In this document: in pieces, positions 10,601-60,765 of the stretch
Layout: each line of letters begins with the position of its first letter
Numbering within the stretch: the first letter of the stretch is position 1
DNA from: Eledone cirrhosa
Lineage: Eukaryota
Reading direction: 5' to 3'
NCBI GenBank assembly: GCA_964016885.1
Contig: OZ024741.1
Location: forward strand, 126,108,001-126,172,000
Length of the DNA stretch: 64,000 bases
The notes under the pieces: model-generated
The model's database searches: none
The model's input: only the letters and a program-made list of their open reading frames with translations
What the model was told of the DNA's origin: nothing
Program-made: the position numbers and the translations under genes

Positions 10601-11756
10601 TTGTATGGTCTGTCACTCACATTAAGGCTGTGTATCTCTTGAAACATATCGTCCCATATCACTTGTAAGGTGTCCACAAGTTTTTGGTGTTCTGTTTGTA
10701 CAGTAGAGTCATGAATTTCAGCCTCGTTGTTGATGTGGTGACAATTACTACTAAAGTTAGCTGACCATTCTCGCTGTTCTTCAGTGGAAGTGGGATGGAT
10801 TTCAGCAAAATTGTTGGTGAACTGTTCACTGTTAGATTTAGTTGGCCATTCTCTTTGTCTGTCATTGGAGGTGGGTGGTTGTCTACAAGGGCTGTATTTG
10901 TAGTATCACTCAATTCTGTTAGATGTATCAATTTACATCTAATGATACGTTTTGCCTGTTCATTTAAATGCTTTGGAGAAAAGTCTAATTCTGGGTGCTT
11001 GGAGTTCCATAAAGATTTTAGCCTTTGCATAAAACCGAACTTTTGGGGTTCAGATTGTTTGTATGCTTCATATAATTCTTTGTTAAGCTCGTAGCTCCAC
11101 TGTATACAACGGTTGTAGTTGCGATTTGGTCGAAGGAGACTTGTACATTTTGCCATGATGAGTTCGTCTATTCACTAATATTTTGTATTTATTTTTCAAA
11201 ATAGTCGATGATCTTCTTTAAAAGTTTCGACAAAGTTCTGTCAGAATCAAATTTAAAGTTATTCACAGCTTGGGTAATATTTCTTTTCAGTTAGTTTTTA
11301 ATTCTACAACTGTGTTTTAAACGTTGTTTTTAAATCGTTTGAATCGAGAACAAAAAAAAAAACCCGTTACTTAGTATATTTCTTTATGAATGTAATATAA
11401 TATAACAACTCATATAAATAGGTGTTCTACAACATACTCACAGTTCAAACACTTATGTTTTTGTTTTTGTTTCTGAATCGAAAACGTTACTTGCATATTT
11501 CTTTACAAATGTAATATAACAACGTTGCATTTATATGTTAAAGTGTATGTATCGTTCATATATCATAAGTGTATGTATCGTTCATATAAATAGGTGTTTT
11601 ACAACACTTAAAGTTCAAACACTTTTGTAGAATTATTGTATGTAATCTTACTGCGTAATGTAGCTCAACTTTTTCCAATATATGGTATGTTGCCTTCATG
11701 TAAGCCGTAATTACACACGTCCGATTATCGGACACTGACCACAACGGTCGCCATTG
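7602..11756 (-). mobile_element. R4/Dong-like non-LTR retrotransposon (RT + CCHC + REL endonuclease), frameshifted
   Basis: Collinear ORF pieces from 11156 down to 7683: N-terminal IQWSYELNKELY...FMQRLKSLW, KSPGPD, NYRPIAC, LDYQKALDSVPH, GIFQGDSLS, HLFFVGDLKLY (catalytic D lost), CRLCKTKIEDVSHIVASC, HNRSDIAVWD...VVEISCP. Clade assigned by motif recall, not phylogeny. Confidence 0.85.
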
Positions 11757-14199: not shown

Positions 14200-14504
14200 G
14201 CGCGGGGACATAGAAATAATCGGGCTGGATGCCCGATCGCGCAGTTAAATCACTGGGAGTGAAGAACCCCTAACCCTTGTCAGGGTATTCTTCTAGGAGA
14301 AGGCATCTCAGGAAACTGGGTTAACTCCGATATAAAACCTGCGGCTCAGTAGTTACCGATGATGTTGATCTTTTCTTCTTTTCGGGTTATAGCTACTGTC
14401 GCTCAGAGAGTGGGATTGGTTCAGTGCACAGTCTTTCCTCACTTTAAAAATATTCGTCACGCACAGGCATTGCACGTGTGCATTAATAATTATTAATAGT
14501 GTAC

Positions 14505-14543
<39 letters not shown>

Positions 14544-17500: not shown

Positions 17501-18131
17501 GTTGGAGTGGTCACCTTGCCAGGATGAAGGATTCTAGAATACCAAAACAACTCTTCTATGGAGAGTTGGTTAAAGGAAAACGACCGCCACATAAACCAAA
17601 AAAGAGGTATAAGGATTCCTTGAAAGCCTCTCTGAAAGACGCTAACATCTCTGCTGATACATGGGAAAATATTGCTGCTGATCGTAATAAATGGAGAAAG
17701 ACTGTATATGAGGGAAAAGTTGCCTTTGAGGCATCTCGAATCGCACACGAGAAAGTAAAGCGGGACGTGAGGAAGGGCATTGCTGTTGCACTTCCAGACG
17801 GCGAGGGTCCTCCTATGGTTCTGACATGCAGCGTCTGTGCGAGACTCTGCCTAAGCAAAGCTGGACTCGAAAGTCATCTTCGCAGTCATAAAGTAAGACC
17901 AGTGGTTGACTACCAGGCTTCTGTTGGAGATGCTACTCATCATGCTTGCCAAACATGTGGTAGAGAATGTAAATCAGCAGGAGGACTCAAGCGACATGCA
18001 AAAGTACACGAACTCCAACCACAGCCGACTATTCCCAGTAAATGTTTTGGTTGCCGACTCTGTGCAAGACATTTTAGATCATTGGCTGGGCTAAAAAGCC
18101 ACATTCGATCGCAGCACTGTTAGTTGCTATC

Positions 18132-24810: not shown

Positions 24811-25974
24811 TACAGTAATATTTTTAATATAGCACACGCACGCGCACACTATTATGTCGATTTTGTCAGCGTTCAGGTCACAAACAACGACCGAACATTT
24901 GGACACCCTGAAATAAATGATACATTTAAAGTCAATTGAACTGTTTTTGTGTTTTATTTTTTATGGCTGACTGCACTCTCAACCAGATGTAATTGATGGT
25001 ACCTATTACGCTTTTAAAGATTTTTATTTATTTTTTGGGAGTAAAGAACACTCTGTGATTCAAACTGTTCGCCTTGACACATGCTGTGTCACACTGAATC
25101 TTCCTGAGAACTAAGTGTCTGTGGAATGTTAAGCCACTTTCTGTTTTTTTCTTTACGAACAGTTTGTTCAACAGAGGTGCAATCCACATACAAATCTCAT
25201 CTTGTGAAGTTTCTTTGATCTCATGTGTCTCAGATATTTTCAATATCTGATATTTAAGATACTTTATGTAGTTTAGTTGTTAACATAATAAAATATAACC
25301 TATATTATATACGAAAGTGAAATATCTCCTTTTGTGACAGTAATTCGCAGTTAACTTTGTCAAACATTCAATTTAATCACATTTCACTGAATGTCGACGC
25401 AACTAATAGACTATCTAGCTTATCGTATTCACACGGATTTTCTGTTTAGTAACTTAATTATAGTGATACAAAATGTTTCTTCTTATCAATCATTTATTTG
25501 CTATTGTCGCGTTTTCTATATCGAATATAGAACTCGTTAATTGTGCTTATATTGGCAAATCTCTATATCTATGAGTAATTGGCGCCACGTAACTTACCCG
25601 AACTCTGAACGACAAGATATCATATTTCAACAAATATCAGTAAAAATACATCAGTAATATGAAGTAGTTACGTTGGGAAAGCTAAGCTGGTACAATGTAA
25701 ATTTAAAATGCAAATGTGAAAACTAGAATAAACTAAGAAAAAACAGTTTACACATATATTAGTAAGATGAAGTAGATAGCTTATATAAAGCTTTGTTTGA
25801 TATGGATGTTTGGGGAAAACTGATACAATAGTAATGAAAAATACAAGAAGTGAAAACTTGAGTAGAGTCAGGGCCGGACTTTCACCTGATGAGGCCTTAA
25901 GCTATAGGAAATATAATAATTATTTTTTAAAATTAATGTTAATGATAAAGAATAAATTGTATGTATGTATTTTA

Positions 25975-27005: not shown

Positions 27006-29129
27006 ATATTTTATTCTTCTCTAGTTTTCACTCTTGTATTTCTAATTTGCATTGCCCCAACTTTTACATTACGGAATTTACACTCTAGTTTCTTTCATGT
27101 ACGTTTCAAACATTATGATACTTACTGTCAGAAGTTGCATATATAGTACCTTAAAGGTAGACGTATTTGTGGGATGCTTAGCAACTTGTACTATAAAACA
27201 AGATGGACTGTACCTGTAATTCAAACGGCAAGTCTTGTCACACACTGTATCATGCTGAATCTCCCTGAGAATTACATTACTTTTATAAGCATATATTTCA
27301 TTCATCTAACAACTGGAACACTTACCGTCATCGAAACTGACGAAGGTCTATCGGTCACTTACCGAAACTGAATTTTTAATCATGGAGTAAAATAAATTGT
27401 AAAAAGCTCTACAGCTAGGATTGTTAATATCACAGCTAACACAATCTCCACTTTCATTAGCAAACACTTGTATATAGTCTGCTTTTAATAAAACAACATT
27501 CTTATCTTGATTTCCATCTTCAGATAATTATTTCCGTATGATTTCATGTTTGGCACCAAGCCATATATAAGGCATTAAGTCAATCTAAAGCGAAAATTCC
27601 TATTACTGTATGGAAATATTATTTTTAAAACTAAACTGTTAGAATATTCTTTCTCAACTTCTTGAAAGATGAGTTTTCTTAATACTAATATTTATTTATT
27701 TATCTCATTTTATTCAAAATTTCTTTTGTTGTTCTCGTCTAACCACAGATCCGAAATTGTTAATATGCAGAAGATAATTTATGGTGTTTTTCAGATGTAA
27801 AAAATAAGATATTTTCTTCAACGCACGCACGATGACATGGCCGAGTAGAACGTCGGATAGAATATTTTGTGATATTCATTTCGTTCCGGCTCTCCGAGTT
27901 CAAATCCCACTGAGCTCAACTTTGCCTTTCATTTTATCGAGATCGTTAAAACATGTAGCAGTTCAGTAGCATTATATATCTGAGTGTGTGGTCTTGATAA
28001 ACGCTCACAAGCGAGAAACAGACTGTCTGTCGGCCGCTCTCTGTTGTTTTTGCCGAGAATAAGTAAGTGACATAGTCACTACTTTAAAACCCATAGCGAA
28101 TGGTCTTCTAAATGTTACTATACATACATTCATGTATAAATCGCTATTTCAGAGCATTATGCACCTTTCAGTGGCCAGGTTACGTATGAACCTGGTGACA
28201 TCATCAGATGTATATTGCATAATAGTTATGTACCAAAGGAATGATGGTTAACACATCACAAGAGGCTTTAAGGAGGAAATGCAGAGAAGAAGAAAACAGA
28301 AGAAAAAAAAGTTTTTTTTTTGTTTTTGACTCATATATGTGTCATGCTAGCCCACCGTTGTCAATTGACGGACAAGAGAAAAGAGCATTCAATACCGAAA
28401 TAGTTTAAATGTTCATTTATTTCACTCTCTTAAATCATTGGTCAACCCAATACCACGGTATAAGGCACGCAAGGTGCCACGCAGTGAGATAATCTGAAAC
28501 CACGTGGATGCAAATCGAACTCGTTTACCACATAACCATACCTTCAGTATTTTTAACAATGCTTCTTTTTAAAAATTCAAAATAGCGGATAATAAAACTG
28601 CTTTAGTTTCCACATCATTTTTATGGAATTCTGGTATTTCTCAATTCCTACTTTATCATTTATTTTTTTGCTAGTTTTAGTATTTGTAATTTCTATGAAA
28701 CATTTAATACACCAATTTGTTTTATACTTATTTATACGTTCCTATCGTTTTATCATCACAATTTTATGCGGAATCAAGCTTCTCTTAGTTTTTAGTAGCC
28801 AGTTATTTGCCATCATACCATTCTTTCGGCACAAGATGTATTTCTTTATGATGAGCCATAAATACTTGTTGGCTCCGTACTGACTGCAACAAACCTGAAT
28901 TTACACACCTTACGATTTATATATACATATTATTTAATCATCAAGTGACTACACGAGCAACATAAATGGCAGACATATTAATGCGTAATACTACATGTAT
29001 TAAAATAATTCTTCGGCGATTCTTAGCTCAGCTCTGAGATCAAATACACGCGAAGACGATTTGCCTCTCGTTCCCTCAAGCAGCCACCTCTGATCAAGCA
29101 TAACTTTGATCGAAGTTAAAGTTAAGTTC

Positions 29130-30697: not shown

Positions 30698-33125
<2,428 letters not shown>

Positions 33126-33140
33126 ATATATATATATATA

Positions 33141-33484
33141 TATTGTTATATTTTGGGAGGGTCATGCTGCCAATAAAAACACACGCACCTGTTGGTTTTC
33201 ACTTCAACACACAAAAACAAGATGGTGTAGGATAGAAAAAAGGAGAAACACAAAATAAAAACCTAGTCACTGAGGAGGTTACAGAATGTGTGACGAAAGA
33301 GCTTCGACAATATATGAACAACCATCCGGTTATCCAACCAGCCGTAAATTAATAATAAATTGAAGTGAAAATGAACAGGTGCGTGTGTTTTTATTGGCAA
33401 CATGACCCTTCCAAAGTATAACAATATCTGTTTCAACACACGTTCTTAGATAAGAAATCTAGCGAAACAAATAAAAAAGACGAA

Positions 33485-37010: not shown

Positions 37011-37166
<156 letters not shown>

Positions 37167-37189
37167 GTATAAAAATCAATACAATATAA

Positions 37190-37267
37190 TTACCTCATTA
37201 CCAGAGGTTTCCCGAATGAGGCGAATACGAAAGAAACGTCTTCATTCGTTCGTCAGACGAGGCAATA
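37190..37267 (-). ncRNA. Type I hammerhead ribozyme (inverted copy of 40962-41039)
   Basis: Same motif. Its single stem I difference turns a G-C pair into G-U. Confidence 0.8.
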
Positions 37268-38011
37268 TAAAACATGGGTAAATACTTAGAAAAACTCATC
37301 AAGAAAATCAAAAAAAGATATAGACAAATGAATTAGAAATTGAAATATATAAAAATCTATCAAGAAATATAGTTAGGTGTGTGTATATGTATGTATATAC
37401 GCTCACAGATGTGCATATATGTATATGCACATATGTATACGTATAGTGAAAAAGTGTGCGTAAATCTAAAATTTAGGGCAAATGTATCTGTATGTACATC
37501 ATAAGTATATGAATATGAAGGCGCGCGCATAAAACGCCTACACACTCGTACACTTAGATGCGGAAGTAAAAGAGGTAAGGGAGTGTAATAATTAAAGGAA
37601 AGTATCAATCTCGATATATTTATAAAAATGTAACAATAAAAAAATGTAACAATAAAATAGAAAGAAAAAATTTTAGAAAGAAAAAATTAAAGAAAAGAAG
37701 ACAAAAAAGGGTACATACATACACAGACACGCATGTCTCACAAAAGAAACGCAAAAATATATATGCTTATACACACACGCGCACTTACACATCCATACGT
37801 TCGATACGTACATACACACACACACACACAACATACTTACACTCACGCATATTGACCTGTTTGCATGCACATGCATAAAAATGAGTAAGTAAAAAAAGGG
37901 GGGGGGGAGAAGAAAAAAGGAACAAAACATAAAACCGAGATGTCAAAAACACGGATATAAAGAAACATACACATACGCATAATATATACATACACACACA
38001 CACACACATAT

Positions 38012-38060
<49 letters not shown>

Positions 38061-40178
38061 CATACACGCACGCGCGCGCACATACGTAGTCACTCATGTA
38101 CATATATAAAAGTATACACACATTAAGGCGTTCAGCCATATTGATACAGGGTGTAAAAAACTTGTGGATAAGTACAAATATAAAATTGTAAGATTGGCTG
38201 CGCAAAAATAAAAAAATAAAAATGAAAAATATATCTGGATTGAAAAACACAAAAGACAAGTGTAATCAGTTAGTGGAGGAAAAAGGGAAGTAAAAAAAGG
38301 GGAAGTAAAAAATGGAAAGTGAATCGGAGAATAAAGGGGGGGGGGGAGGGGTTTGGTGGATGTGAAGTAAAAAAAAAAAAATAAGAATAAAAATAAATGA
38401 AATTATTGACAAGGATAAAAATGAAAGTAAGTCAGAAAGGGTAACTAAAAAGAGAATAATAAGAGTTTATGGAGGATAAGTATCTGAAAGTGTGTTAAGT
38501 TTATATGAGCTGGAAAGCAGGTGTGATTTCATGTGTGGGCAACTGGTGAAAATTTCCGTCTTTGTGTTCAGGCAGGTCATTGGTGATTTTAGATTTTGCA
38601 ATATCCAATATTTTTCATTTATGCAGAGCGTGCATTTTCTTGTTCCTCTAGCATATTCTTTAGATTGGTTCAAAATTGACCAATCTAATTTATATTGGAT
38701 GTCTTGGTCTTTCAAATCCCAAATTCTGCTAGCCAGAGCTGTTGTAAATCTTTTTTCTGGATGTCGAAAGGATGCGACATGTGAGTAATAACGCGTTTTG
38801 AATTTGTCTTGCGTCATACCCACATATCGTTCACTGGTGGCTGGATGGTTGTTGCTGATGGTTGTCACTTTAGCCGCATATACAATGGCTTTGGTGTTGC
38901 ATTTACCTTGTAATGGGCATTCACTTTTGATTCCACAGGAGCAAATTTGATTTTCTCTAGGTGATATTTTGTTGAGGATATAGGACTTAATAGGGGGACC
39001 GCAGGAATAGCTAATTTTAACACAGTTTCTGTTAAAGATCTTATAGTATCTATGTGTTCTAGGGAAATGTTTATCTAGGAGCTCAAGGAATTTTTTGCCT
39101 ACATTAGTTTTAACTGCTAGAGAGTAGGGGGTGTGAACCAGATTATTTTTCTTTTCCTATTTTTATGTTTAATAGAGTTAGTATAGTTAGGTATGTATTT
39201 AATCGGTTCGCTAAAACCGCTATTTTGGAGGGCTTTATTATAGTAGGGGGATGCCTTATTAAAAATAGCTTCTGAGGAAGAGAGGGTGGAGATCCTACGG
39301 CTAATATTAGGGATAAGGTTTTTAAAAACTATAGGTGGATGGCAAGATCCTTTATTTATATATTTTAAGTTTTCATTAGGTTTATGATATGGTTTATAAG
39401 AAGCAGTAGGCAAATCTAGGTTTATATCTAGGAAATCTACGTTGGAAAGGTTAGTGTCAATAGTAATTTTAAGATTAAAACTAGCGAAGGTTTTTATTAA
39501 GTCTTTCCTTAATCTATCTAAGTTATGGCCTATGGTGGTATGGGAAATTATTAGACCATCGTCGCGATAAAGCCCAAAAATATGGGTAGGAAATTTTTCT
39601 TTAAGTGTATGTAAGAGGAATAGGCCGACCAGATCACAAACATCGGCACCAAAGACCTGCCTGAACACAAAGACGGAAATTTTCACCAGTTGCCCACACA
39701 TGAAATCACACCTGCTTTCCAGCTCATATAAACTTAACACACTTTCAGATACTTATCCTCCATAAACTCTTATTATTCTCTTTTTAATTACCCTTTCTGA
39801 CTTACTTTCATTTTTATCCTTGTCAATAATTTCATTTATTTTCATTCTTATTTTTTTATTTTTACTTCACATCCACCAAACCCCTCCCCCCCCTTTATTC
39901 TCCGATTCACTTTCCATTTTTTACTTCCCCTTTTTTTACTTCCCTTTTTCCTCCACTAACTGATTATACTTGTCTTTTGTGTTTTTCAATCCAGATATAT
40001 TTTTCATTTTTATTTTTATTTTTTTATTTTTGCGCAGCCAATCTTACAATTTTATATTTGTACTTACTTATCCACAAATTTTTTACACCCTGTATCAATA
40101 TGGCTGAACGCCTTAATGTGTGTATACTTTTATATATGTACATGAGTGACTACGTAAGTGCGCGCGCGTGCGTGTATG

Positions 40179-40219
<41 letters not shown>

Positions 40220-40961
40220 ATATATGTGTGTGTGTGTGTATGTATATATTATGCGTATGTGTATGTGTCTTTATATCCGTGTTTTTGACATCTCGGTTTT
40301 ATGTTTTGTTCCTCTTTTCTTCCCCCCCCCCTTTTTTTTACTTACTCATTTTTATGCGTGTGCATGCAAACAGGTCAATATGCGTGAGTGTAAGTATGTT
40401 GTGTGTGTGTGTGTATGTACGTATCGAACGTATGGATGTGTAAGTGCGCGTGTGTGTATAAGCATATATATTTTTGCGTTTCTTTTGTGAGACATGCGTG
40501 TCTGTGTATGTATGTACCCTTTTTTGTCTTCTTTTCTTTAATTTTTTCTTTCTAAAATTTTTTCTTTCTATTTTATTGTTACATTTTTTTATTGTTACAT
40601 TTTTATAAATATATCGAGATTGATACTTTCCTTTAATTATTACACTCCCTTACCTCTTTTACTTCCGCATCTAAGTGTACGAGTGTGTAGGCGTTTTATG
40701 CGCGCGCCTTCATATTCATATACTTATGATGTACATACAGATACATTTGCCCTAAATTTTAGATTTACGCACACTTTTTCCCTATACGTATACATATGTG
40801 CATATACATATATGCACATCTGTGAGCGTATATACATACATATACACACACCTAACTATATTTCTTGATAGATTTTTATATATTTCAATTTCTAATTCAT
40901 TTGTCTATATCTTTTTTTGATTTTCTTGATGAGTTTTTCTAAGTATTTACCCATGTTTTAT

Positions 40962-41039
40962 ATTGCCTCGTCTGACGAACGAATGAAGACGTTTCTTTCG
41001 TATTCGCCTCATTCGGGAAACCTCTGGTAATGAGGCAAT
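40962..41039 (+). ncRNA. Type I hammerhead ribozyme with extended stem II
   Basis: AUUGCCUCGU CUGACGA A-CGAAUGA...UCAUUCG-G GAAA CC-UCU-GG UA AUGAGGCAAU. Stem I is 10 bp, cleavage triplet GUA. Confidence 0.85.
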
Positions 41040-41139
41040 TATATTGTATTGATTTTTATACATTAAATTTTGCTCTGATACTTACATAGAGCACTCTTCA
41101 CTTCTATGACCTTTTCTGTTTCCAACGGAAATTTCAATA

Positions 41140-45231: not shown

Positions 45232-45611
45232 TGTAATCTGAGATTTTCGAATATTAATAATTGTTTCTACTTTTGGCACAAGGCCAGTAATTACCCAGTG
45301 CATTACTGGTACTTTATTTTATCGAATATTAATAATAACATTCTATTCGTTTGCAATTATGCAAACAAGCTTCAATTTTATAGCCATGTCGGTAGAATGA
45401 ACACTTCATTCTTGCTCTTGTGTGGGCATGCGAACATAACTGCAGACACTGTTTCTGGGTATCACCCTTCATCAGTAGAACTCACTGTTCACCTGCCAAA
45501 CTGTCAGAGCAAGAATGAAATGTTCATTCTACTGACATGGCTATACAATTGAGGCTTGTTTGCAAAATTGCAAACGAATAGAATTTTATTATTAATATTC
45601 GAAAAACTCAG

Positions 45612-45617
<6 letters not shown>
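45232..45617 (-). mobile_element. Fold-back element with central HHR-like motif, interrupted by a SINE fragment
   Basis: 45323-45418 is inverted at 45507-45602. CUGAUGA A-GGGU-GAU-ACCC-A GAAA CAGUG UC lies at 45441-45479 (-). The SINE piece at 45261-45321 is flanked by duplicated TCGAATATTAATAAT. Confidence 0.6.
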
Positions 45618-45669
<52 letters not shown>

Positions 45670-45708
45670 AATATATACATATATATATATATATACACAT
45701 ATATATAT

Positions 45709-45763
<55 letters not shown>

Positions 45764-45960
45764 CATATATATAGATAATTCAATATATCAACTAACATAA
45801 GCGCACAGATGCACGCCCATGCCAGCAAATACACAGGTTATGTCATAGTACCTAGGTGGTTCAATGCAGGAGAATGCAGAACAATAATATAAAGGACGTA
45901 AAATAAGAAAATATTTTTTTAAAAAAATTTAAAAAAAATTTTTTACTTACTTAAATTTTC

Positions 45961-46042
45961 ACTCCAACTAATTAGTTTCTGCAATGGGATAAAGACAGTT
46001 ACGTAATCCAACTGTCGAGAATTCATTGCGTCATCAGGGAGT
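45961..46042 (-). ncRNA. Type I hammerhead ribozyme, array copy 1 (also 46517-46598 and 47073-47154)
   Basis: Reverse complement of the motif at 47794-47875. Confidence 0.8.
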
Positions 46043-47793
46043 CTATTCTCAGTTAAGTCTCCAGGCAATGCGCGGACAGTGGCGGCTCATATAAAAATAA
46101 TAATAATTCGGTAGATCGAACAGCTTGCGAGGACTGGATTCTATGTACCGAAATTCTCACTGCTTCAAGTCAAATGGCCGATTCTAAAGAATCAATCACG
46201 TGACACAGAGGCTAGTTAGAAGGAATGGGATGGTAAGATGACTGACGCCTACTAACACCCAAAAAAAAAATTTTTAGAAGTGGTTTTGACAAGTTTGCTC
46301 GACAAATCAGTGATTTGGAGATAAATATAGATAATTCAATATATCAACTAACATAAGCGCACAGATGCACGCCCATGCCAGCAAATACACAGGTTATGTC
46401 ATAGTACCTAGGTGGTTCAATGCAGGAGAATGCAGAACAATAATATAAAGGACGTAAAATAAGAAAATATTTTTTTAAAAAAATTTAAAAAAATTTTTTT
46501 ACTTACTTAAATTTTCACTCCAACTAATTAGTTTCTGCAATGGGATAAAGACAGTTACGTAATCCAACTGTCGAGAATTCATTGCGTCATCAGGGAGTTT
46601 ATTCTCAGTTAAGTCTCCAGGCAATGCGCGGACACTGGCGGCTCATATAAAAATAATAATAATTCGGTAGATCGAACAGCTTGCGAGGACTGGATTCTAT
46701 ATACCGAAATTCTCACTGCTTCAAGTCAAATGGCCGATTCTAAAGAATCAATCACGTGACACAGAGGCTAGTTAGAAGGAATGGGATGGTAAGATGACTG
46801 ACGCCTACTAACACCCCAAAAAAAAATTTTTAGAAGTGGTTTTGACAAGTTTGCTCGACAAATCAGTGATTTGGAGATAAATATAGATAATTCAATATAT
46901 CAACTAACATAAGCGCACAGGTGCACGCCCATGCCAGCAAATACACAGGTTATGTCATAGTACCTAGGTGGTTCAATGCAGGAGAATGCAGAACAATAAT
47001 ATAAAGGACGTAAAATAAGAAAATATTTTTTTAAAAAAATTTAAAAAAATTTTTTTACTTACTTAAATTTTCACTCCAACTAATTAGTTTCTGCAATGGG
47101 ATAAAGACAGTTACGTAATCCAACTGTCGAGAATTCATTGCGTCATCAGGGAGTCTATTCTCAGTTAAGTCTCCAGGCAATGCGCGGACACTGGCGGCTC
47201 ATATAAAAATAATAATAATTCGGTAGATCGAACAGCTTGCGAGGACTGGATTCTATGTACCGAAATTCTCACTGCTTCAAGTCAAATGGCCGATTCTAAA
47301 GAATCAATCACGTGACACAGAGGCTAGTTAGAAGGAATGGGATGGTAAGATGACTGACGCCTACTAACACCCAAAAAAAAATTTTTAGAAGTGGTTTTGA
47401 CAAGTTTGCTCGACAAATCAGTGATTTGGAGATAAATATAGATAATTCAATATATCAACTAACATAAGCGCACAGATGCACGCCCATGCCAGCAAATACA
47501 CAGGTTATGTCATAGTACCTAGGTGGTTCAATGTCGAGCAAACTTGTCAAAACCACTTCTAAAAATTTTTTTTTTGGGTGTTAGTAGGCGTCAGTCATCT
47601 TACCATCCCATTCCTTCTAACTAGCCTCTGTGTCACGTGATTGATTCTTTAGAATCGGCCATTTGACTTGAAGCAGTGAGAATTTCGGTACATAGAATCC
47701 AGTCCTCGCAAGCTGTTCGATCTACCGAATTATTATTATTTTTATATGAGCCGCCAGTGTCCGCGCATTGCCTGGAGACTTAACTGAGAATAG

Positions 47794-47875
47794 ACTCCCT
47801 GATGACGCAATGAATTCTCGACAGTTGGATTACGTAACTGTCTTTATCCCATTGCAGAAACTAATTAGTTGGAGT
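47794..47875 (+). ncRNA. Type I hammerhead ribozyme, array copy 4 (also 48349-48430, 48905-48986 and 49462-49543)
   Basis: ACUCC CUGAUGA C-GCAAUG..GACAGUU-loop-AACUGUC..CAUUGC-A GAAA CUAAUUAG UU GGAGU. Stem I is 5 bp, stem II is two-tier, stem III is the palindrome AACUAAUUAGUU, cleavage triplet GUU. Confidence 0.82.
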
Positions 47876-49612
47876 GAAAATTTAAGTAAGTAAAAAATTT
47901 TTTTTAAATTTTTTTAAAAAAATATTTTCTTATTTTACGTCCTTTATATTATTGTTCTGCATTCTCCTGCATTGAACCACCTAGGTACTATGACATAACC
48001 TGTGTATTTGCTGGCATGGGCGTGCATCTGTGCGCTTATGTTAGTTAATATATTGAATTATCTATATTTATCTCCAAATCACTGATTTGTCGAGCAAACT
48101 TGTCAAAACCACTTCTAAAAATTTTTTTTTGGGTGTTAGTAGGCGTCAGTCATCTTACCATCCCATTCCTTCTAACTAGCCTCTGTGTCACGTGATTGAT
48201 TCTTTAGAATCGGCCATTTGACTTGAAGCAGTGAGAATTTCGGTATATAGAATCCAGTCCTCGCAAGCTGTTCGATCTACCGAATTATTATTATTTTTAT
48301 ATGAGCCGCCAGTGTCCGCGCATTGCCTGGAGACTTAACTGAGAATAGACTCCCTGATGACGCAATGAATTCTCGACAGTTGGATTACGTAACTGTCTTT
48401 ATCCCATTGCAGAAACTAATTAGTTGGAGTGAAAATTTAAGTAAGTAAAAAATTTTTTTTAAATTTTTTTAAAAAAATATTTTCTTATTTTACGTCCTTT
48501 ATATTATTGTTCTGCATTCTCCTGCATTGAACCACCTAGGTACTATGACATAACCTGTGTATTTGCTGGCATGGGCGTGCATCTGTGCGCTTATGTTAGT
48601 TGATATATTGAATTATCTATATTTATCTCCAAATCACTGATTTGTCGAGCAAACTTGTCAAAACCACTTCTAAAAATTTTTTTTTTGGGTGTTAGTAGGC
48701 GTCAGTCATCTTACCATCCCATTCCTTCTAACTAGCCTCTGTGTCACGTGATTGATTCTTTAGAATCGGCCATTTGACTTGAAGCAGTGAGAATTTCGGT
48801 ACATAGAATCCAGTCCTCGCAAGCTGTTCGATCTACCGAATTATTATTATTTTTATATGAGCCGCCAGTGTCCGCGCATTGCCTGGAGACTTAACTGAGA
48901 ATAGACTCCCTGATGACGCAATGAATTCTCGACAGTTGGATTACGTAACTGTCTTTATCCCATTGCAGAAACTAATTAGTTGGAGTGAAAATTTAAGTAA
49001 GTAAAAAATTTTTTTAAAATTTTTTTAAAAAAATATTTTCTTATTTTACGTCCTTTATATTATTGTTCTGCATTCTCCTGCATTGAACCACCTAGGTACT
49101 ATGACATAACCTGTGTATTTGCTGGCATGGGCGTGCATCTGTGCGCTTATGTTAGTTGATATATTGAATTATCTATATTTATCTCCAAATCACTGATTTG
49201 TCGAGCAAACTTGTCAAAACCACTTCTAAAAAATTTTTTTTTTGGGTGTTAGTAGGCGTCAGTCATCTTACCATCCCATTCCTTCTAACTAGCCTCTGTG
49301 TCACGTGATTGATTCTTTAGAATCGGCCATTTGACTTGAAGCAGTGAGAATTTCGGTACATAGAATCCAGTCCTCGCAAGCTGTTCGATCTACCGAATTA
49401 TTATTATTTTTATATGAGCCGCCAGTGTCCGCGCATTGCCTGGAGACTTAACTGAGAATAGACTCCCTGATGACGCAATGAATTCTCGACAGTTGGATTA
49501 CGTAACTGTCTTTATCCCATTGCAGAAACTAATTAGTTGGAGTGAAAATTTAAGTAAGTAAAAAATTTTTTTTAAATTTTTAAAAAAAAATATTTTCTTA
49601 TTTTACGTCCTT

Positions 49613-49664
<52 letters not shown>

Positions 49665-49720
49665 TGTATATATATGCATGTATATATGTATATATATATA
49701 TATGTATATATATGTATATA

Positions 49721-49753
<33 letters not shown>

Positions 49754-50582
49754 ATATATATATATATATAATCTGGACTAAACTAAAACTGGAACGAACA
49801 ATGAACCAAAGCCCGATCCCTATGTTCTCTAAAGAGTTACCTCCCTACACCCTACCTAATCCTTTTTCTTATATAAATGAATTACCCTCTCATTTCTCTC
49901 TCCCCTACCCGACCACCCTGAATTACCTCCCCCTGCATATTAACTCTCTAAAAAGGGAAATCATATCAAACCCCAAACTACCATTTGCCTCCATTATGGA
50001 CCAACTTTGCCTTTCATCCTTACGGGGTCGATAAAATAAAGTACCAGTAATGCACTGGGTAATTGCTGGCCTTGTGCTTAACGTAGAAACAATTATAGAC
50101 CAACCAAGCGCTCTTGCCATAATAACACATTTTGAACTGCTTATCCTCAAGAACTATGCCTGTAAATAATATTATGATTTCTTTCCCATTACCTTATCAT
50201 GTTCCACATCTCACCTTTTCTTTTCTTTTTTCTTTTTACTTCAAAAGCCTTCTTTGTAAATAATATTATTCTTTCTTTCCCATTTCCTTAACATGTTCAA
50301 CATCACATTACTTTCTCTCCATCATTTTATACCAATACAAATTCCCCCCTTTGATAATCCATAACATGCTGAAACCGGTAATAGACAATTATTAAATATA
50401 TAAATAAATAAATAAATAAATAAATGCCATTGTTAATTAATAAATAAATTAACTAATACCTTAACACTTCACACAAAGTAAAATATTTTGTTTTAAACAT
50501 TTTCTAACCCAGAAAAAAGAGAAAAATAAAATAAAAGGAAAAAAAAAATGTTTCTTCCTAATAATCATCTTTTTCTCCCTAT

Positions 50583-50614
<32 letters not shown>

Positions 50615-50620
<6 letters not shown>

Positions 50621-51215
50621 GTGGCGACAATGTGCAGACGACTCGCTGGCTGGATCTTGAGGATTTTCCAGACAAGAGACCGAGACACTATGTTGACAGT
50701 ATGGAGGAAATTTGTCCTAAGCCGCCTAGATTATTGCTCCCAGTTGTGGTCACCCCATAGTGTCAAACTAACCACGGAGCTTGAGGCAATCCAGAGGATT
50801 GCGACGATGAAGGAGATAAGCTACTGGGAGAGGCTAAAAGAACTGAACCTCTACTCCTTGGAACCAAGATGGGAGACATACGCAGTGATCTACATGTGGA
50901 AAATTCTGGAGGGACTAGCACCAAACTTTGGCATTGGGAGCTGGACCAACTGTCGAACAGAACGTCACTGTGTGGTGCCAAAGGTCCCGTCTTCCACATC
51001 TAGAATAAGGAGCAGATATTGCAATAGCCTGGGATTCAAGGGCCCTCAACCCTTCAACAAGCTGCCGAGAGATCTGAGAGATCTGCATGGTGTGGAAGTG
51101 GATGTCTTCAAGAAACATCTCGACACCTTGCTATCCAGGATCCCGGATGAGCCCACAGCAAGGCACAAGGGAACCTAAGGGCAGCAGCAACGAACTCCCT
51201 CTTGCACCAGTGGCC
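50615..51215 (+). pseudogene. CR1-like LINE 3' fragment (RT C-terminus)
   Basis: GWILRIFQTRD, RLDYCSQLWSPH, LEAIQR, SYWERLKELNLYSLE, FNKLP, FKKHLD..L..IPDEP. 5'-truncated. Confidence 0.8.
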
Positions 51216-51330
51216 AACCAATAGAGGGTGGAGATAGAATGTGTAGCAACAAGGCCAAAACAATGCAGGTATGGATATAGAATATAAATGCAAATGCATA
51301 AGATATTGTTGACAATTAGTCTTTTACCTT

Positions 51331-51689
51331 AAATTTATTTAAATATCCTTAATTTTCGAGATAATATCTCTTCTTCGGAGGGAAGTAAAGTGGTTAATCC
51401 AGCGTTCTAAATAGCTTGCCAAGTCATGCTGACAGGAAATGGTATAGAGATTCAATTCTATCTCTAATGTCGAAGAGTTAAGATTAGGTGAATAAAGAGT
51501 AGCCTCCCTTTAAAAGGGGTTTTGTACATGTATGTTTAAGTGTGTGGGAGAATACGTGAAGGCGTAAGTATGCGTGTGTGTGAGTATGAGAAGATATGTC
51601 TATACGTAAATGTGGGGGATAGATGCTCTATCATGTTAAAACTGGTCTTTGTGTGTGTATGTGTGTGTGAGAGAGAATAAGTGGAGGTG

Positions 51690-51749
<60 letters not shown>

Positions 51750-54446
51750 GCGTGTTGGCGAGAGGAGGGTGTAAGTGTGGGGCTAGGTGCTCTATCAAGT
51801 TATAAATTTGGTGTTGAGTTCTAGTCTATTATTGATTGGTTGTTGTGTTTTGTCTATAATTAGTGCTTCCTTAATTCTAAGATTGCCGAGGTTTCTTTCC
51901 TTAGTTTCTATCCTAACTGTTATGTTTTTGTCGGTGTTTTTGCATTTCACTAGGTGTTTCTTAAATGAGGAAGCGTTAGTATTGAGGTGTTCTTTTATTC
52001 TTATGTGACGTGGTCTGGTGGTGCTACCTATGTAGAAATTGCTGCATTTGTCGCACTCTAATCTGTATACGACGTAAGCCTGGTGGCATAGGTCTGTGTC
52101 GTTGATGGGGAAGTTGTCTAGCCTGCAGCGGCTGTCATGTCTGGTGGAGTGTTTTTTTGGTTAGCTGTCCACGTAGAGAAGGTCCTGAGTGGGCTAGTTG
52201 GATATCTATTCCCTCTCGTCTGATAGCTCTGCGGATGGCTGTTGTTGTTTCGTCACTGAAGTGTGGGAGCTTCAGGAAGCAGGTGTTAGTGCCGCGGGTG
52301 TGGTGTCCTCCGTTCTTTCTGGCACGGTTCGTGGTGGACGTCGGGTATCCGTTCAGTTTGAGTACTTCCAGGAAATGTGTGGTGTGTGTGTGTCACGGTC
52401 TCTAGCGTCGGTGCATTTGTTCCGGATACGTGTTAGTTCGTTCCTTATGTATCCGAACTTCGCGCTGACTGGGAGGGCCGATCTGAAATATACGAGCAGG
52501 TCCCTGCTGGCGGTTTTTTTTATAGAAGTAGGTGTGGATGTTGCCTTCCTCTGTTACCCTGAGTTGGAAGTCCAGTAGGGATAGGGATCCGCGGTCATCG
52601 GGTGTTCCATGCTGAACTTTATACTGGCGTCCATGCTGGAGAATGTCGTGTATATTTTATCAGCCTCCTCACGGGATAATGTAAGGATGAGTATGTCATC
52701 TACATATCGGATGAAGAAGGTATGGGAATGGCAGGTGTTGAGGGCTCGGCATTCTAGCTGGTTCATATAGGTGATGGCCAGCAGGCCCGATAGGCTGGAT
52801 CCCATGGGTAATCCTGTTGTCTGTCTGTATGTGTGGTGGTGGAAGGTGAAGTACGTGTTGTCCACTGTGAAGGACAAAATCTGGTGTATGTCCGTCGGAT
52901 GGAGACCGTAGCAGTGGATGTCCTCTGCGACCACGCAGTCCGTCAATAAATCGACAGCTGGATGAGCGGGGACTGTAGTGTAGAGGGAGACAACGTCGAG
53001 GCTAAAGGCGTATTTATTTAGTTTAAGTTGTTCTGGCTGGAGTTGGTGTAGTCTACGTATGACTTCGTCGGAGCTACTGACATGCCCGGGAAAGGTGGGG
53101 AGTAGAGGCTCGAGGACCTGAGAGAGGAGCCAGGAGATTTTGTATAGGGGTCCTTCTATGCTAGAGACGATGGGTCTTATTTGTATCTTAGTACTATTCT
53201 TGTGGGTCTCTATCAGGTGATAGAAAGTGGGCAGTCTGCTATTTCTAGTGGTGTAGTTGAGTTTAACTTTATTTGGGAGTTGTCTTCTCCTACAGATGTC
53301 GAACCAGATGGAGTTGGCCTGTTTCTCGATCTGGGCTGCAGTCATGTCCGGGATCTCTGTATATAGTTCGTTGTCGCTTAGGTGTTCAAAGGCTAGGTTG
53401 TTGTATGTGGCTTGAGAGATGACACAAAACTCTTTACCTATATATAAGTTCCCTATTCCGCAGGTTCTTCAGGGCGAGTTGTTGTGTCCTGGAGAGGTTT
53501 GGGGCTATCTTCTTCTGTTTCTGTAAGATGTTAAATACGGAATGTTTTAGCCTCGAGAGTTTTTCTTCAAGCTCGCGGTTGGCAGGCGGTGGCCAGAGTG
53601 GGCGATCCAGTTGGTATATCGGGTATCTGTGTTTGTTAGATTCCGTGGTGTTGTTGTCGAGAGTCGATATCCATTTTAGTTGGTAGGTGGCCCGACAGAA
53701 ATTCGTTTCTATGTAGAGCCATAATTTGTCGTCCAGTCTCTGTTTCAATATGAACTTGGGACCCAGGCTGAGGAGGTCTAATTCCTCTCGGGAGAGGGAT
53801 CCTGTCAAGTCTGTGACGAGGTGTTTTGCGTCAGGTGTGTTGTCGGTCGGGGCGCCGCTAGGTTCCGTGTTGGTACCGTCTTGTTCGTCTCTGTTGGTGC
53901 TTAGAGTTGGGTTGTTGTTAAGACGGTTAGCCGTGCTGAGTTTGAGAAATTTTTGCGTCAGGCGTATTTTCTCGTAGACTCGGCGATGGTGGTATGACCT
54001 GTCTATAGCGGCGGAGATAACTCTGGGAAGAGGTTCTGGGGTTTCAGCGAGTTGTGGTACAAGGCTGGAAATAGTCCGTATGTGTTGTTGTAGCGTGCGG
54101 TGTAGGTGTTGTATGAGTTTTCTTAGGCAGAATGTTTGTATGTAGCTAAGTGATCGTTTGAGGCCTGGTGTTTTGAAGCATGTTGGTAGGTGCAAGTATT
54201 TGATAGTTATTGGAATGATGTTGTTATTCAGGCATCGTTTGAGGAAGTTTATTTGGCGCGCTTTTCAGATAGCTGGAAGAGTTTCTTTACAGTTTCTTTC
54301 ACTCTTTGACATTAGAGATAGAATGGAATCTCTACACCATTTCCTGTCTGCATGACTTGGTAAGCTATTTAGAACGCTGGATTAACCACTTTATTTCTCT
54401 CCGAAGAAGAGATATTATCTCGAAAATTAAGGATATTTAAATAAAA
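51331..54446 (-). mobile_element. Penelope-like element, near full length, frameshifted, with ~145-bp inverted termini
   Basis: ORF pieces with LSLGPKF, IRPIVS, SLDVVSLYT, GLPMGSSLS and RYVDD. GIY-YIG (VVYRLEC..C..FYIGST...RIKEH) near 51990-52090. 51335-51478 is inverted at 54301-54444. Confidence 0.9.
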
Positions 54447-54469
54447 ACATCGAGGTTAATCAGTGATAA

Positions 54470-55163
54470 GTCAGCTAATTACTATAACCACAGTAAGTAA
54501 GCTAATTACTATAATTTTCTTATTTTACGTTTTTCATATAATTGTTTTGCATCCCCTTGCATTGAACCACAAAGTTACTAAGATAAAACCTATATATTTG
54601 CTTGCATGGGTATACATCTGTATATATATGTTGGTAGATATACTAATTCTTTATAATTATCTCCAAATTATTTTGTTGAGCAAAAATTTGCCAAAATTAC
54701 TACTATAGTTCATAGCAACAGCTTAGCTACTGTCTTTTTAACACCCACTCCTCACTGATTAACCTCGATGTCACGTGATTGATTCTTTTGAATTTGCCAC
54801 CGAACAAGAAGGCAGTGATTTTTTCAGTGTCCTGGAATTTAGTCCCCGCTTGCTCTTTTCCATCCACTGAATATTTTTGTATAAGTTCCCTGTGTCCACG
54901 CATTGCCAGGTATCTTAGCTGAGAATGACTCCCTGATGACAAAAAGGTTTCTCCATGCTCTCCATGTATATTCCTTTCAGAAACTAATTAGTTGGAGTGA
55001 AATTTAAGTAAGTAAGCTAATTACTATAATTTTCTTATTTTACGTTTTTCATATAATTGTTCTGCATCCCCTTGCATTGAACCACAAAGTTACTAAGACA
55101 AAACCTATATATTTGGTTGCATGGGTATACATCTGTATATATATGTTGGTAGATATACTAATT

Positions 55164-55170
<7 letters not shown>
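54470..55170 (+). mobile_element. ~1.3 copies of a 515-bp unit homologous to the 556-bp HHR unit
   Basis: AGTAAGTAAGCTAA recurs at 54492 and 55007. Collinear with the array unit (TGCATTGAACCAC, TGTCACGTGATTGATTC, GCATTGCC.GG, CTGAGAAT). Confidence 0.85.
54928..54998 (+). ncRNA. Type I hammerhead ribozyme, diverged relative of the array HHR
   Basis: ACUCC CUGAUGA CAA-AAAGG...CCUUU-CA GAAA CUAAUUAG UU GGAGU. Confidence 0.78.
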
Positions 55171-55246
<76 letters not shown>

Positions 55247-55501
55247 AAAGAATAGAGATGTAACACACAAGTTATTATATATTGGTAAACGGAATAGAAA
55301 ATGCTGACAAATTGTTCACAGTTGAAAAATGGTTTAATTAGGAATAAAAGAGTATTAGTGATTGTATGGGTTAGTATTCAGTTGTGGTTTTAAGTTTTTA
55401 AGTTTTTACCGGTTGCGCATTTCTAAATGCTTTTCAAAAATAATTTTGAGATAGAGTGTCCGTGTTGTTTGCTCTGATCTGATTAGTTTTGGGAATTCTA
55501 C

Positions 55502-55759
55502 CTGTTTTTATGTTAAAAAAGTGGCTCCAGCGTTACTTTGGTGTTGCAAAAATTCTTGTGGTCAAAACAATTTTGATTGGTCGGTAGAGGTCATGTGAAT
55601 GTAAAAAATTGATTTTGCGCCAAGACTGTTTTTATGTTAAAAAAGTGGCTCCAGCGCTATTTTGTGTTTGCAAAAATTCTTGTGGTCAAAACAATTTTGA
55701 TTGGTCGGTAGAGGTCATGTGAATACCGACCAATCAAAATTGTTTTGACCACAAGAATT
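55502..55759. repeat. ~124-bp direct repeat followed by a 36-bp inverted piece
   Basis: 55502-55600 is repeated at 55626-55723. TACCGACCAATC...CAAGAATT (55724-55759) is its reverse complement. Confidence 0.8.
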
Positions 55760-55769
55760 GTTTTGACCA

Positions 55770-56058
55770 AAAGGAAACGCACAAAAACAAAGAAAAGAAT
55801 CCCCAGTCACTGAAGAGGTCACATAGTGCGTGACGAAAGAACTTTGACAATATATGAACAATCATCTGGTTGTGGAACCAACCAACCGGAAATTTATAAA
55901 TTCCTAAATTTATAAATTTAATTTATAGTAAATTGAAGTGAAAGCAACTGGTGCGTGTGTTTCTTATTGGCAACATGACCCTCCCAAAGTATAACAATAT
56001 CGGTTTCAACACACGTTTTCAGATAAAGAATCTTGCTAAACAAATTCAGAAACGAAAT
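55770..56058 (+). mobile_element. Solo pseudo-LTR of the 30802 PLE family, with HHR at 55806-55848
   Basis: Matches 32806-33125. Confidence 0.8.
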
Positions 56059-56235
56059 ACATATATATACATATATACATACAAATACACACATACATAT
56101 ATACATATATACATATATATATACATATACACAGATATACACACACATATATACACACATACGCACATATATACACACATATATATATACATATATATAT
56201 ATATATACACATATATATATACACATATATATATG

Positions 56236-56374
56236 GGGGCTGCCAACTCGTTTTCGAGTACGGCCACTACATTATATCCATGTAGGAGAACCCCTACCGA
56301 TGCGCTGAACGAGTGACATTTTAGTCCAGCCAGAGACTTGAAAACTCTGGTACAAACACTACACTTGTGACAAT

Positions 56375-56376
<2 letters not shown>
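56236..56376 (-). mobile_element. 3' fragment of the RTE-derived non-autonomous element
   Basis: Reverse complement of about 18815-18955. Confidence 0.8.
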
Positions 56377-56446
<70 letters not shown>

Positions 56447-56485
56447 CACACATACATACACATGCATATACATATACAAGCACAT

Positions 56486-56649
<164 letters not shown>

Positions 56650-56820
56650 AAAGTTATATTTAAATTGTTGGGTTAACAACGAGTAAATATTTATAACTGA
56701 TATGAAAGCACTCAACAAGTATTTGTTCACAATATTTTTTTACTGCCAAATCAACTTCCCAAATGCAAGTCGATTGAAAGGTATGTCATATCTATTTATT
56801 TATAAGACTGTTTATATTGT

Positions 56821-56884
56821 ATTTTGTCTGATGAAGGCATAACATATTGTTAATATGATATCCCTGAAATATATATAATGAAAT
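56821..56884 (+). ncRNA. Type I hammerhead ribozyme in a solo pseudo-LTR (56647-56925)
   Basis: AUUUUGU CUGAUGA AGG..CAUAUU-GUU-AAUAUG..CCU GAAA UAUAUA UA AUGAAAU. Confidence 0.7.
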
Positions 56885-56922
56885 AAATATGGTTTTATAA
56901 ATATAGTTTCCATTTATTTAAT

Positions 56923-56962
<40 letters not shown>

Positions 56963-57003
56963 TATACACACACATACACATATATACACATACGCACATA
57001 CAC

Positions 57004-57056
<53 letters not shown>

Positions 57057-57203
57057 CATATATACATACATATATATATATATACATATATACACACATA
57101 CATATATACATACACATACACACACATATATATATATATGTATATATATATATACACACATATACATATATATACACACATACATACATACATACACATA
57201 TAT

Positions 57204-57246
<43 letters not shown>

Positions 57247-57626
57247 CATATACATATATATATATAAATATACATACACATACACATACATATACATATA
57301 CATACATATATACATATATATATATGTATACACAGAGATATCCACGGTATGTTGTGGGGTCCACATACACACACATAGACATACATGTATACATATATAT
57401 ACACATATATATAGATATAAATATATCTATATCTATATCTATATATATAATAGAATATGTAGAAAAGATAACACACCAGAGAGAGAGAGAGATAGTGCGT
57501 TATCAGTCAAACAGGGAAAAACCACCAGTGTATGGAATCTATAGCCCATGGAAGGCAAAGTAGACACACAATAATTAAAAGTATAAATCAAAGTGCAAAT
57601 ACGTACCTTGATAACTATCTAACACA

Positions 57627-57703
57627 CACGTACAAATCCGAAAGGGTCTGTTTCACCAACTAATTTGTTGACAGAAATGATTAGCCTATGGTTCATCAGC
57701 GTG
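57627..57703 (-). ncRNA. Type I hammerhead ribozyme (family of 6798-6879)
   Basis: CACG CUGAUGA ACCA-UAG-GCUAAU...AUUAGU-UGGU GAAA CAGACCC-UUUC-GGAUUUG UA CGUG. Confidence 0.8.
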
Positions 57704-58202
57704 AGAGGGACAATTCTTTAAAAAAAGAGTTTTATAATGTATATAAAGTATTTGTAAAATTCATCTTATCCAATGTTGAGTATTACAATTAAAATGAATT
57801 AATAAGAATTAAAAACTAAAAATTAAAGATTTAAAATTAAGTGTTGAAGCACGTTTTTTTCATCTTCCTTGTTGAGAAGGAGACTGGTAAAATGAACTCT
57901 CGTGTATAGAGAGGTGTAGTCATGATAATAGCAGCAGCAGTCGTGGCAGGTATGTTTTTTTCACACACAACAAAATTGTTTTAGGGACGAAGGAGATATT
58001 TTGTAAATATGTGTGTATCTCAATTGTGTTAATGGAATGGTCAAGAGTTCAGATGGGGTGGCGAAGAGGGGAATTGTAAGCTAGAGAATAATTCTATGGT
58101 ATGAGCAATAGTAGGGTGGCAAAAGAAGTTCTATTTTTGAAATATGGTTTTAGAGAGAGTGAATGTGTACGTGTGGGAGTGTATATATAAAAATACACAC
58201 AC

Positions 58203-60701: not shown

Positions 60702-60765
60702 ATTTCATTATATATATTTCAGGGATATCATATTAACAATATGCTATGCCTTCCTCAGACAAAAT
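60702..60765 (-). ncRNA. Type I hammerhead ribozyme downstream of the PLE ORF
   Basis: Copy of 56821-56884 with core CUGAGGA, differing at the free N7 position. Confidence 0.72.

Follow-up and report, generated by a model that had tools for sequence, protein, structure and literature searches.

What kind of element is a non-coding 515-bp repeat that carries a hammerhead ribozyme motif, and does its RNA cut itself? The repeat lies in a 64,000-nucleotide window, the whole stretch of DNA analysed here (G000:C2:126108001-126172000, from a 3.0-Gb animal genome), which is rich in microsatellites and Penelope-like elements (PLEs). The unit (54494-55008, plus strand) is non-coding, with 58 aa as the longest ATG open reading frame once circularised, and its closest genomic copies are 95-97% identical. 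It is followed by a 162-bp partial second unit (55009-55170, plus strand), identical to the unit start at 159 of 162 positions, and directly 3' by a (TA)38 target microsatellite (55167-55242). At 515 + 162 bp, or 1.31 units, the insertion is as the initial annotation described it, a partial tandem of ~1.3 units ending in (TA)n. Its start had been placed too late, as the element reaches back to 54447. A 20-bp inverted fragment there (54447-54466, minus strand), the reverse complement of 54752-54771, appears to be a vestigial second arm and to mark the true 5' junction of the insertion. The patchwork that joins it to the unit (54467-54493, plus strand) consists of short duplicated pieces of the unit start, including AGCTAATTACTATAA at 54473 and 54500, and was likely produced by template jumps of a reverse transcriptase (RT).

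The sole hammerhead of this copy is a type I motif at 54928-54998 (plus strand). Its motif pattern gives helix I as ACUCC (54928-32) with GGAGU (54994-98), the core as CUGAUGA (54933-39), GAAA (54980-83) and UU (54992-93), a decayed helix II (54941-47 with 54972-78), helix III as the palindrome ACUAAUUAGU (54983-92) and a predicted cut after U54993, in a GUU triplet. A GAGAA strand (54921-54925) is predicted to form a pseudoknot with UUCUC in the helix II internal loop (54949-54953), and CUUAG (54914-54918) with UUAAG (55004-55008) is a candidate distal extension of helix I. A GTAAGT donor-like motif overlaps this candidate helix just 3' of the ribozyme (55003-55016) and is followed by AT-rich sequence; an intron at this point (GTAAAT in the sister family described below) was considered and dropped, as no conserved acceptor was seen by eye. 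Across the family, the core (CUGANGA, GAAA and UH) and three covariation-supported helices with an open helix I are those of a type I hammerhead. The 10.1-11.1 pair at the base of helix II, usually G-C, is replaced by a mismatch (C54940 opposite A54979 in the window copy), and for that reason the hammerhead is a variant and not a canonical one.

The initial annotation presented the unit as a diverged sister of a 556-bp unit, a subfamily present in the window as an insertion with 7 hammerheads in ~99% identical copies (45765-49617). The two units are indeed collinear from end to end, with 372 of 562 columns identical, or 73% of the 509 ungapped columns. The core segments that it called identical are so: GACTCCCTGATGAC (14 nt) and CAGAAACTAATTAGTTGGAGTGAAA (25 nt) are shared by both units. 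No identical run is longer than the 25-mer, the 3' half of the hammerhead, and a run of at least 24 nt occurs in 0.8% of 20,000 column shuffles. The 14-nt run, the 5' half, ranks fourth, and the second longest is a 20-nt block outside the ribozyme, TGTCACGTGATTGATTCTTT, which is conserved about as well as the core.

The stem II swap from GCAAUG/CAUUGC to AAAGG/CCUUU that was also proposed holds only in part. RNAfold does pair AAAGG with CCUUU in the window copy, but the subfamily has GAAA(A)GG/CCUUUC as its helix, which keeps the register of GCAAUG/CAUUGC in the 556-bp unit; the swap was misregistered because the window copy has decayed. Position 54941, which follows CTGATGAC, is G in 46 of 48 copies of the 515-bp subfamily and A in the window; the 3' strand before GAAA is TCCCTTTCA in 42 of the 48, and the window's TTCCTTTCA occurs in 1. 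Since 80 of the 84 exact genome-wide matches to the 515-subfamily signature have G at 54941, the AAAGG/CCUUU register is private to the window copy; contigs of a public run (X1) likewise have G there, at a depth of 1569/1609. With A/C at helix II pair 1, the window's AAAGG/CCUUU looks like a remnant left by two private changes, loss of the first G-C pair and loss of one C. Copies are ~95% identical within the 515-bp subfamily vs 99% within the 556-bp subfamily, and the former is small and older. An array of ~16 of its units elsewhere (G000:C2:226738900-226747651; loci L026 and L029) is 88-95% identical to the window unit and has many broken cores. In circular folds scored against 30 shuffles, the decayed 515-bp unit has a z-score of -1.8 and the 556-bp unit -3.2. 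The window copy is best seen as a worn, 5'-truncated fossil, its single ribozyme lacking the first G-C pair and probably dead. The segment 54928-54998, which had been put forward for a cleavage assay, is therefore a poor construct, being decayed, monomeric and cut short of the covarying pseudoknot strand at 54921-54925.

The family to which this fossil belongs is large, and its division into subfamilies was correctly foreseen. A genome-wide scan with the pattern CTGANGANN{25,55}GAAACTAATTAGT returned 10,856 exact matches and 1 for the reversed-pattern control, and the 147 copies with a long enough body form at least 17 sequence clusters. Eight full-unit representatives are 70-88% alike, and 103 cut-site-to-cut-site intervals give unit lengths of 504-571 bp. 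Over 136 distinct regions, helix II pair 1 is G-C in 129, pair 2 is paired in 135 (A-U 66, C-G 36, G-C 17, U-A 16), pairs 3 and 4 are each paired in 135 and pair 6 in 129. Pair 5 is paired in 84 of the 136, a low count that arises because the 515-bp subfamily has one extra base there, seen as a bulge or A/C mismatch. Helix III is invariant inside the family, and sister families have other palindromes; a search that allowed changes in the outer palindrome bases returned 1 match, which is unrelated.

Covariation was scored on an alignment of 19 rows, 18 hand-picked representatives and the window copy, for four helix II and two helix I pairs, the remainder being misaligned. Pairing is kept in these aligned copies: 96.6% of cells are paired vs 92.0% after shuffling and 27-53% in slid controls, and the 13 double changes (3.1 when shuffled) were reached in 0 of 500 shuffles. 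A tree of the 17 clusters was then drawn from the non-ribozyme body alone (length 1.39), skipping the inserted base of the 515-bp subfamily at pair 5 and using majorities for two mixed clusters. On this tree three changes fall at pair 2 and two at pair 5, with equal counts for the left base, the right base and the pair; neutral simulation left all cells paired in 0 of 20,000 runs, and in 0.27% at half rate. Among the 17 cluster majorities GAAA and UH are fixed and only N7, the free position of CUGANGA, varies, and in some clusters helix I is longer by one base pair, gained on both strands. Where copies depart from the majority of their cluster, pairs are mostly broken, as expected of post-insertion decay. 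The ribozyme is present in 29 of 30 units picked by a motif outside it, the exception being cut by a later insertion. Core identity between subfamilies, again in copies picked by a non-ribozyme motif, is 0.946 vs 0.747 elsewhere, above the background that the initial annotation had named as a yardstick. Conservation matching that of the core is found in 3% of 14-nt windows, including a block, TGTCACGTGATTGATTC (54769-54785, plus strand in the window copy), that is a candidate promoter element and that we take to be E-box-like. Selection on the RNA fold, which the annotation had inferred, is supported at the family level by helix II changes that compensate one another branch by branch.

The mismatch at the base of helix II is itself a constant feature. 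Positions 10.1/11.1 are C/A in 130 of the 136 regions, A/A in 4 and another base opposite A in 2, so that A is present in all 136; among the 100 family-pattern matches listed, for which the pattern fixes neither base, A occurs in 100 and C in 99. The cut-site triplet is GUU in 134 of 136 regions. Rfam covariance models gave no match at gathering score in the window; when matches up to E = 10 were admitted in 45400-58000, none of the 110 was a hammerhead. C/A at these positions was not found in the text portions of the literature searched, and the variant may be in print; the same search found no paper devoted to this repeat family or to cephalopod hammerheads. Unrelated hammerhead families of the same genome have A/A, C/A or U/U at 10.1/11.1 (701 matches, control 14). 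The pseudoknot strands are GAGAA with TTCTC in 86 of the 98 distinct places listed, GAAAA with TTTTC in 10, the mixed GAGAA with TTTTC in 0 and otherwise in 2; in the 136 sampled regions 104 are concordant, 27 unparsed and 5 discordant. The change of pseudoknot inside the family may have been a single event.

A distant sister family bears on how this mismatch should be read. It was found by asking for other palindromes (1,202 matches, control 28, a few unrelated) and consists of 485- and 525-bp units (485-527 bp; loci L215-L241) with the same long helix II and the palindromes CTGATCAG and CTGTACAG. Its pseudoknot, GGAAAA/TTTTCC, is present in 28 of 30 regions, and the distal helix I extension is CCTA/TAGG in 16 of 30, compared with CTTA/TAAG in 103 of 136 regions of the main family. 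The helix II base is G-C in 10 regions, U/U in 14, A/C in 3, C/U in 2 and U/C in 1, and the 485-bp subfamily sets a canonical G-C and a GUA site into this common scaffold. In the light of these bases, C/A reads as a relaxed 10.1-11.1 pair rather than as two insertions. Alignment outside the ribozyme is weak (global score -10 vs a shuffle maximum of 6; a profile score of 9.0 bits vs a maximum of 3.1 in 300 shuffles, in 1 of 12 units only), so homology of the two families rests also on their ends, the two ends of the sister family falling at positions aligned with those of the main family. Its tail, the stretch between these ends, is 107-110 bp. Some sister copies are embedded in (TA)/(TACA) arrays of several kb (L223, L224).

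The annotation's conclusion that these hammerheads are functional runs ahead of the evidence, given the 10.1/11.1 mismatch, a U at position 17, a predicted misfold of the monomer and the report that only 1 of 9 comparable Xenopus dimers cleaved. In the monomer, a fold that pairs CUGAU with AUUAG is predicted to lie lower than the hammerhead fold by 2.5-3.4 kcal/mol, and the palindrome duplex is predicted at -9.0 kcal/mol. It is conceivable, if rather unlikely, that in the same element the fold is kept as a signal for binding or folding with a partner protein, or as part of a promoter or 5' leader, with little or no cleavage. The fixed mismatch and U17 would suit such a role, as would the absence of a pile-up of 5' ends at the cut site and the location of both insertion ends 3' of an intact site (see below). 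Published work points the same way: PAc ribozyme mutants still insert and RNA ends are absent at the PAc site (PMC11167929), and PLE hammerheads are weakly active in vitro (PMC4209133). Against this, the catalytic positions are all fixed while N7 varies, helix III remains palindromic in the sister families, and the 485-bp sister subfamily puts canonical bases into the same scaffold; an axolotl ribozyme with a U/U mismatch at 10.1/11.1 is described as active (PMC7229834). A ribozyme predicted to cleave is the likelier reading.

How the family inserts can be read from its ends. Arrays are 5'-truncated at scattered points and often two-armed (head-to-head). Of 157 3' ends, 77 lie at unit position 47 and 80 further on; all 77 short ends run into (TA)n, and 74 of the 80 long ends (~position 162) into either (TA)n or (CT)n(TA)n. 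Of the 42 loci that have ends on both strands, 39 combine one short and one long end, as at 45765-49617, where the minus-strand arm stops at the long end and the plus-strand arm at the short end. In the window copy (plus strand) the short end corresponds to 55055 (position 47) and the long end to 55170 (position 162), and the 115 bp that separate them are what we call the tail. Measured from the predicted cut, the two ends are 62 and 177 nt further 3', which implies a template that ran through uncut or religated ribozymes. The scissile bond has 2 of 172 5' ends within 3 nt (2.3 expected); 24 lie within -14 to +25 of the cut (12.9 expected), a sampling-biased excess with P 0.06 in a less biased subset.

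This pattern already contradicts a satellite amplified at the DNA level with leftover ribozyme similarity, which could draw on some long local arrays and on equally conserved non-ribozyme blocks. Single insertions are scattered over many contigs, their 5' ends are random, their 3' ends fall at two fixed points, in (TA)n, and compensatory changes recur; such a satellite is hard to square with this, and we put its likelihood close to negligible. The 5' truncation, partial tandems, inverted arm, one-end tail and microsatellite target are those of a PLE insertion, and the non-coding tandem units with one type I hammerhead each are, at the family level, those of a non-LTR retrozyme. With one hammerhead, the window copy falls short of the number expected of an active retrozyme, which other family loci such as 45765-49617 reach. 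The RT plus GIY-YIG ORF of an autonomous PLE is lacking in the unit (the longest ATG ORF is the 58 aa given above) and was not joined to one in 110 loci.

The units could instead be only the terminal repeats (pLTRs) of a coding PLE whose full-length copies lie outside the sample. Retrozymes are reported to derive from pLTRs (bioRxiv 10.64898/2026.07.22.740005), and the sampled loci were 3-10 kb and chosen by DNA likeness. However, tblastn matches in these 110 loci include no PLE ORF joined 5' of a unit, arrays of ~16 ORF-less units exist (C2:226.739-226.748 Mb), and the cut-site-to-cut-site intervals stay at unit length; we consider pLTRs of this kind very unlikely. A partner was likewise not found by tblastn in 20 loci of other mismatch-type families or in the sister-family loci, and a Neptune-like endonuclease query for one returned only the Neptune-like family. 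That coding family ends at two sites in (TA)n, like the repeat family; the two share target and two-end habit and no alignable sequence. Further leads were discarded. The repeat family and the Neptune-like 3' end have an 11-nt word in common, which a hand count places 62 nt ahead of the first end in both; it is missing from the closest relatives and was treated as chance. Locus L126, taken for a coding version, is a unit cut by another insertion. A link to the Naiad 'HHR_half_core' was followed through motif words of the present family, which are absent from the Naiad consensuses of Craig et al., where line breaks could hide matches, bar one unrelated nematode match. Contigs came from six public runs of unrecorded type and carry no information on RNA ends or strand; the 0-3 low-depth contigs from organisms B and C do not count as evidence of host range.

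Several of these points are direct observations: the size of the family, its subfamilies, the covariation, the two ends, the (TA)n targeting, the lack of an ORF and the decay of the window copy. On the strength of the genomic evidence, we consider it about 70% probable that the family is a non-autonomous PLE, or non-LTR retrozyme, with a self-cleaving hammerhead of the dimer type; that it is such an element, whether the ribozyme cleaves or serves in the non-cleaving role weighed above, is very probable. Elements of this kind are already known, and it is the C/A mismatch, the GUU site, the long pseudoknotted helix II and the long tail that make this one a variant.

We hypothesize that tandem units would be transcribed and that the family would borrow an RT-endonuclease for its copying. 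Pairing of two palindromic helix III strands would free CUGAU from its predicted monomer pairing with AUUAG, self-cleavage being predicted only for the dimer. The pseudoknot, which links the strand 5' of helix I to the helix II internal loop, would hold the active shape and tolerate C/A. Cutting after GUU, possibly with ligation to a unit-length circle, may proceed slowly or with the help of a protein. The partner protein would nick both target strands and probably comes from a clade that targets (TA)n, such as Neptune; reverse transcription would start inside the unit, 62 nt 3' of the cut for one arm and 177 nt for the other, and read-through of uncut or religated ribozymes would yield the partial tandems.

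The likenesses and differences that follow are with passages of the hammerhead literature, Weinberg 2019 (PMC6765202) among them. Tandem retrozymes make circles, and an axolotl form with U/U at the helix II base cleaves, better as a dimer (Cervera & de la Pena 2020, PMC7229834); retrozymes derive from pLTRs, and 8 of 9 Xenopus dimers did not cleave (Li, Clavereau & Pollet 2026, bioRxiv 10.64898/2026.07.22.740005). Like these non-LTR retrozymes, the present family runs to thousands of copies in many subfamilies, has coding PLEs alongside and consists of non-coding tandem units that each carry one type I hammerhead. Its unit length is inside the 51-972 bp range of Li et al. and exceeds the 170-400 nt circles of the 2020 study. 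It differs in having a covarying pseudoknot instead of a loop1-loop2 contact, C/A at the helix II base, (TA)n targeting and two-armed inserts with no visible target-site duplications. The hammerheads of PLEs have a palindromic helix III, an extra base after A9, a conserved G10.1-C11.1 and low activity (Cervera & de la Pena 2014, PMC4209133). With those that have a small palindromic helix III, in pLTRs, the present hammerhead shares type I topology, the palindrome, a predicted dimer, a 5-6 bp helix I, a 6-bp helix II and the nucleotide after A9; unlike them, it faces that nucleotide with an A (C/A or A/A), its helix II domain spans 35-50 nt and includes an internal loop and second hairpin, and it has a 10-nt palindrome and a GUU site.

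According to Craig et al. 2021 (PMC8557442), PLEs come with partial tandems, arms in inverted orientation and a tail of 30-40 bp. For the Poseidon element PAc of Anolis, Frangieh et al. 2024 (PMC11167929) show a tail bounded by two internal RT start sites and a protein that nicks both strands and extends them; the ribozyme cuts only with the help of this protein, and insertion in vitro proceeds without the ribozyme. The present family resembles this anatomy in two start sites 3' of the ribozyme that define a tail, in AT-rich targets, 5' truncation and an inverted arm, and departs from it in being ORF-less, in the length of its tail (115 bp, or 107-110 in the sister family, vs the usual 30-40 bp) and in having one end type per arm at 39 of 42 loci. 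Pseudoknots occur in ~40% of hammerheads and U/U is tolerated, and matches with a mismatch at 10.1/11.1 were rejected by default in that survey (Perreault et al. 2011, PMC3088659). As there, ours is a Watson-Crick pseudoknot between helix I and II regions, and an active U/U at 10.1/11.1 is known in that set; unlike those examples, which are mostly type II and bacterial, this is a dimer-type repeat with C/A and a pseudoknot to an internal loop.

A broader and more tentative possibility, which we regard as doubtful for now, is a superfamily of active non-autonomous Penelope-like RNAs with >12,000 ribozyme copies. It would use a hammerhead subtype not found in the literature searched: a pseudoknot reaching a long helix II would leave the 10.1-11.1 pair free to vary (G-C, U/U, A/C, C/A, A/A), palindrome pairing would switch on a self-inhibited monomer, and the inserts would record twin priming at two RT start sites 115 nt apart, one per target strand. 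If so, the purpose of PLE ribozymes and tails would become directly testable; hammerheads of PLEs are dispensable in vitro for PAc and weak in most assays. The family amounts to a natural mutational series that includes young (99% identical) members; it holds a ribozyme form missed by Rfam models and keeps a clean genomic record of two-site priming.

The surroundings of the repeat hold other elements. The window element adjoins the right end of a broken coding PLE (51310-54445, minus strand) with an RT domain (Pfam PF00078, 52554-53468), a C-terminal GIY-YIG-like frame and inverted terminal repeats of ~170 bp (51310-51480 and 54290-54445) that carry a short hammerhead-like motif. We considered whether the two are one element and rejected this, as the PLE is separate, has its own ribozyme and has no DNA match past the junction. 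The Neptune-like family mentioned above (30911-33298 and 55810-56050; CX4CxxC linker, following Craig's description) has 21,188 genomic candidates, a canonical-base hammerhead with a CUU site, and two 3' ends ~57-60 bp apart in (TA)n. A second two-armed family (45400-45614 and loci L162-L176), with no adjacent ORF in 15 loci and several hundred matches, has A/A at the helix II base, the near-palindrome CATTAGTG and a GUC site, and one of its arms in the window ends in (AC)n. A further PLE (37160-41068) has perfectly inverted arms of 669 bp, each with a hammerhead-like motif (37208-37256 and 40972-41020). Hammerhead-like cores of several unrelated families are found at 371-393, 1257-1280, 6825-6872, 25886-25911, 27337-27367, 56828-56869, 57651-57699 and 60717-60758, and hammerhead pattern matches in the window number 19 vs 3.0 expected. 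A broken non-LTR element lies at 8548-11171 (minus strand), and a near-complete LINE, presumably RTE-like, with endonuclease, RT and C-terminal zinc fingers at 14500-18123 (plus strand).
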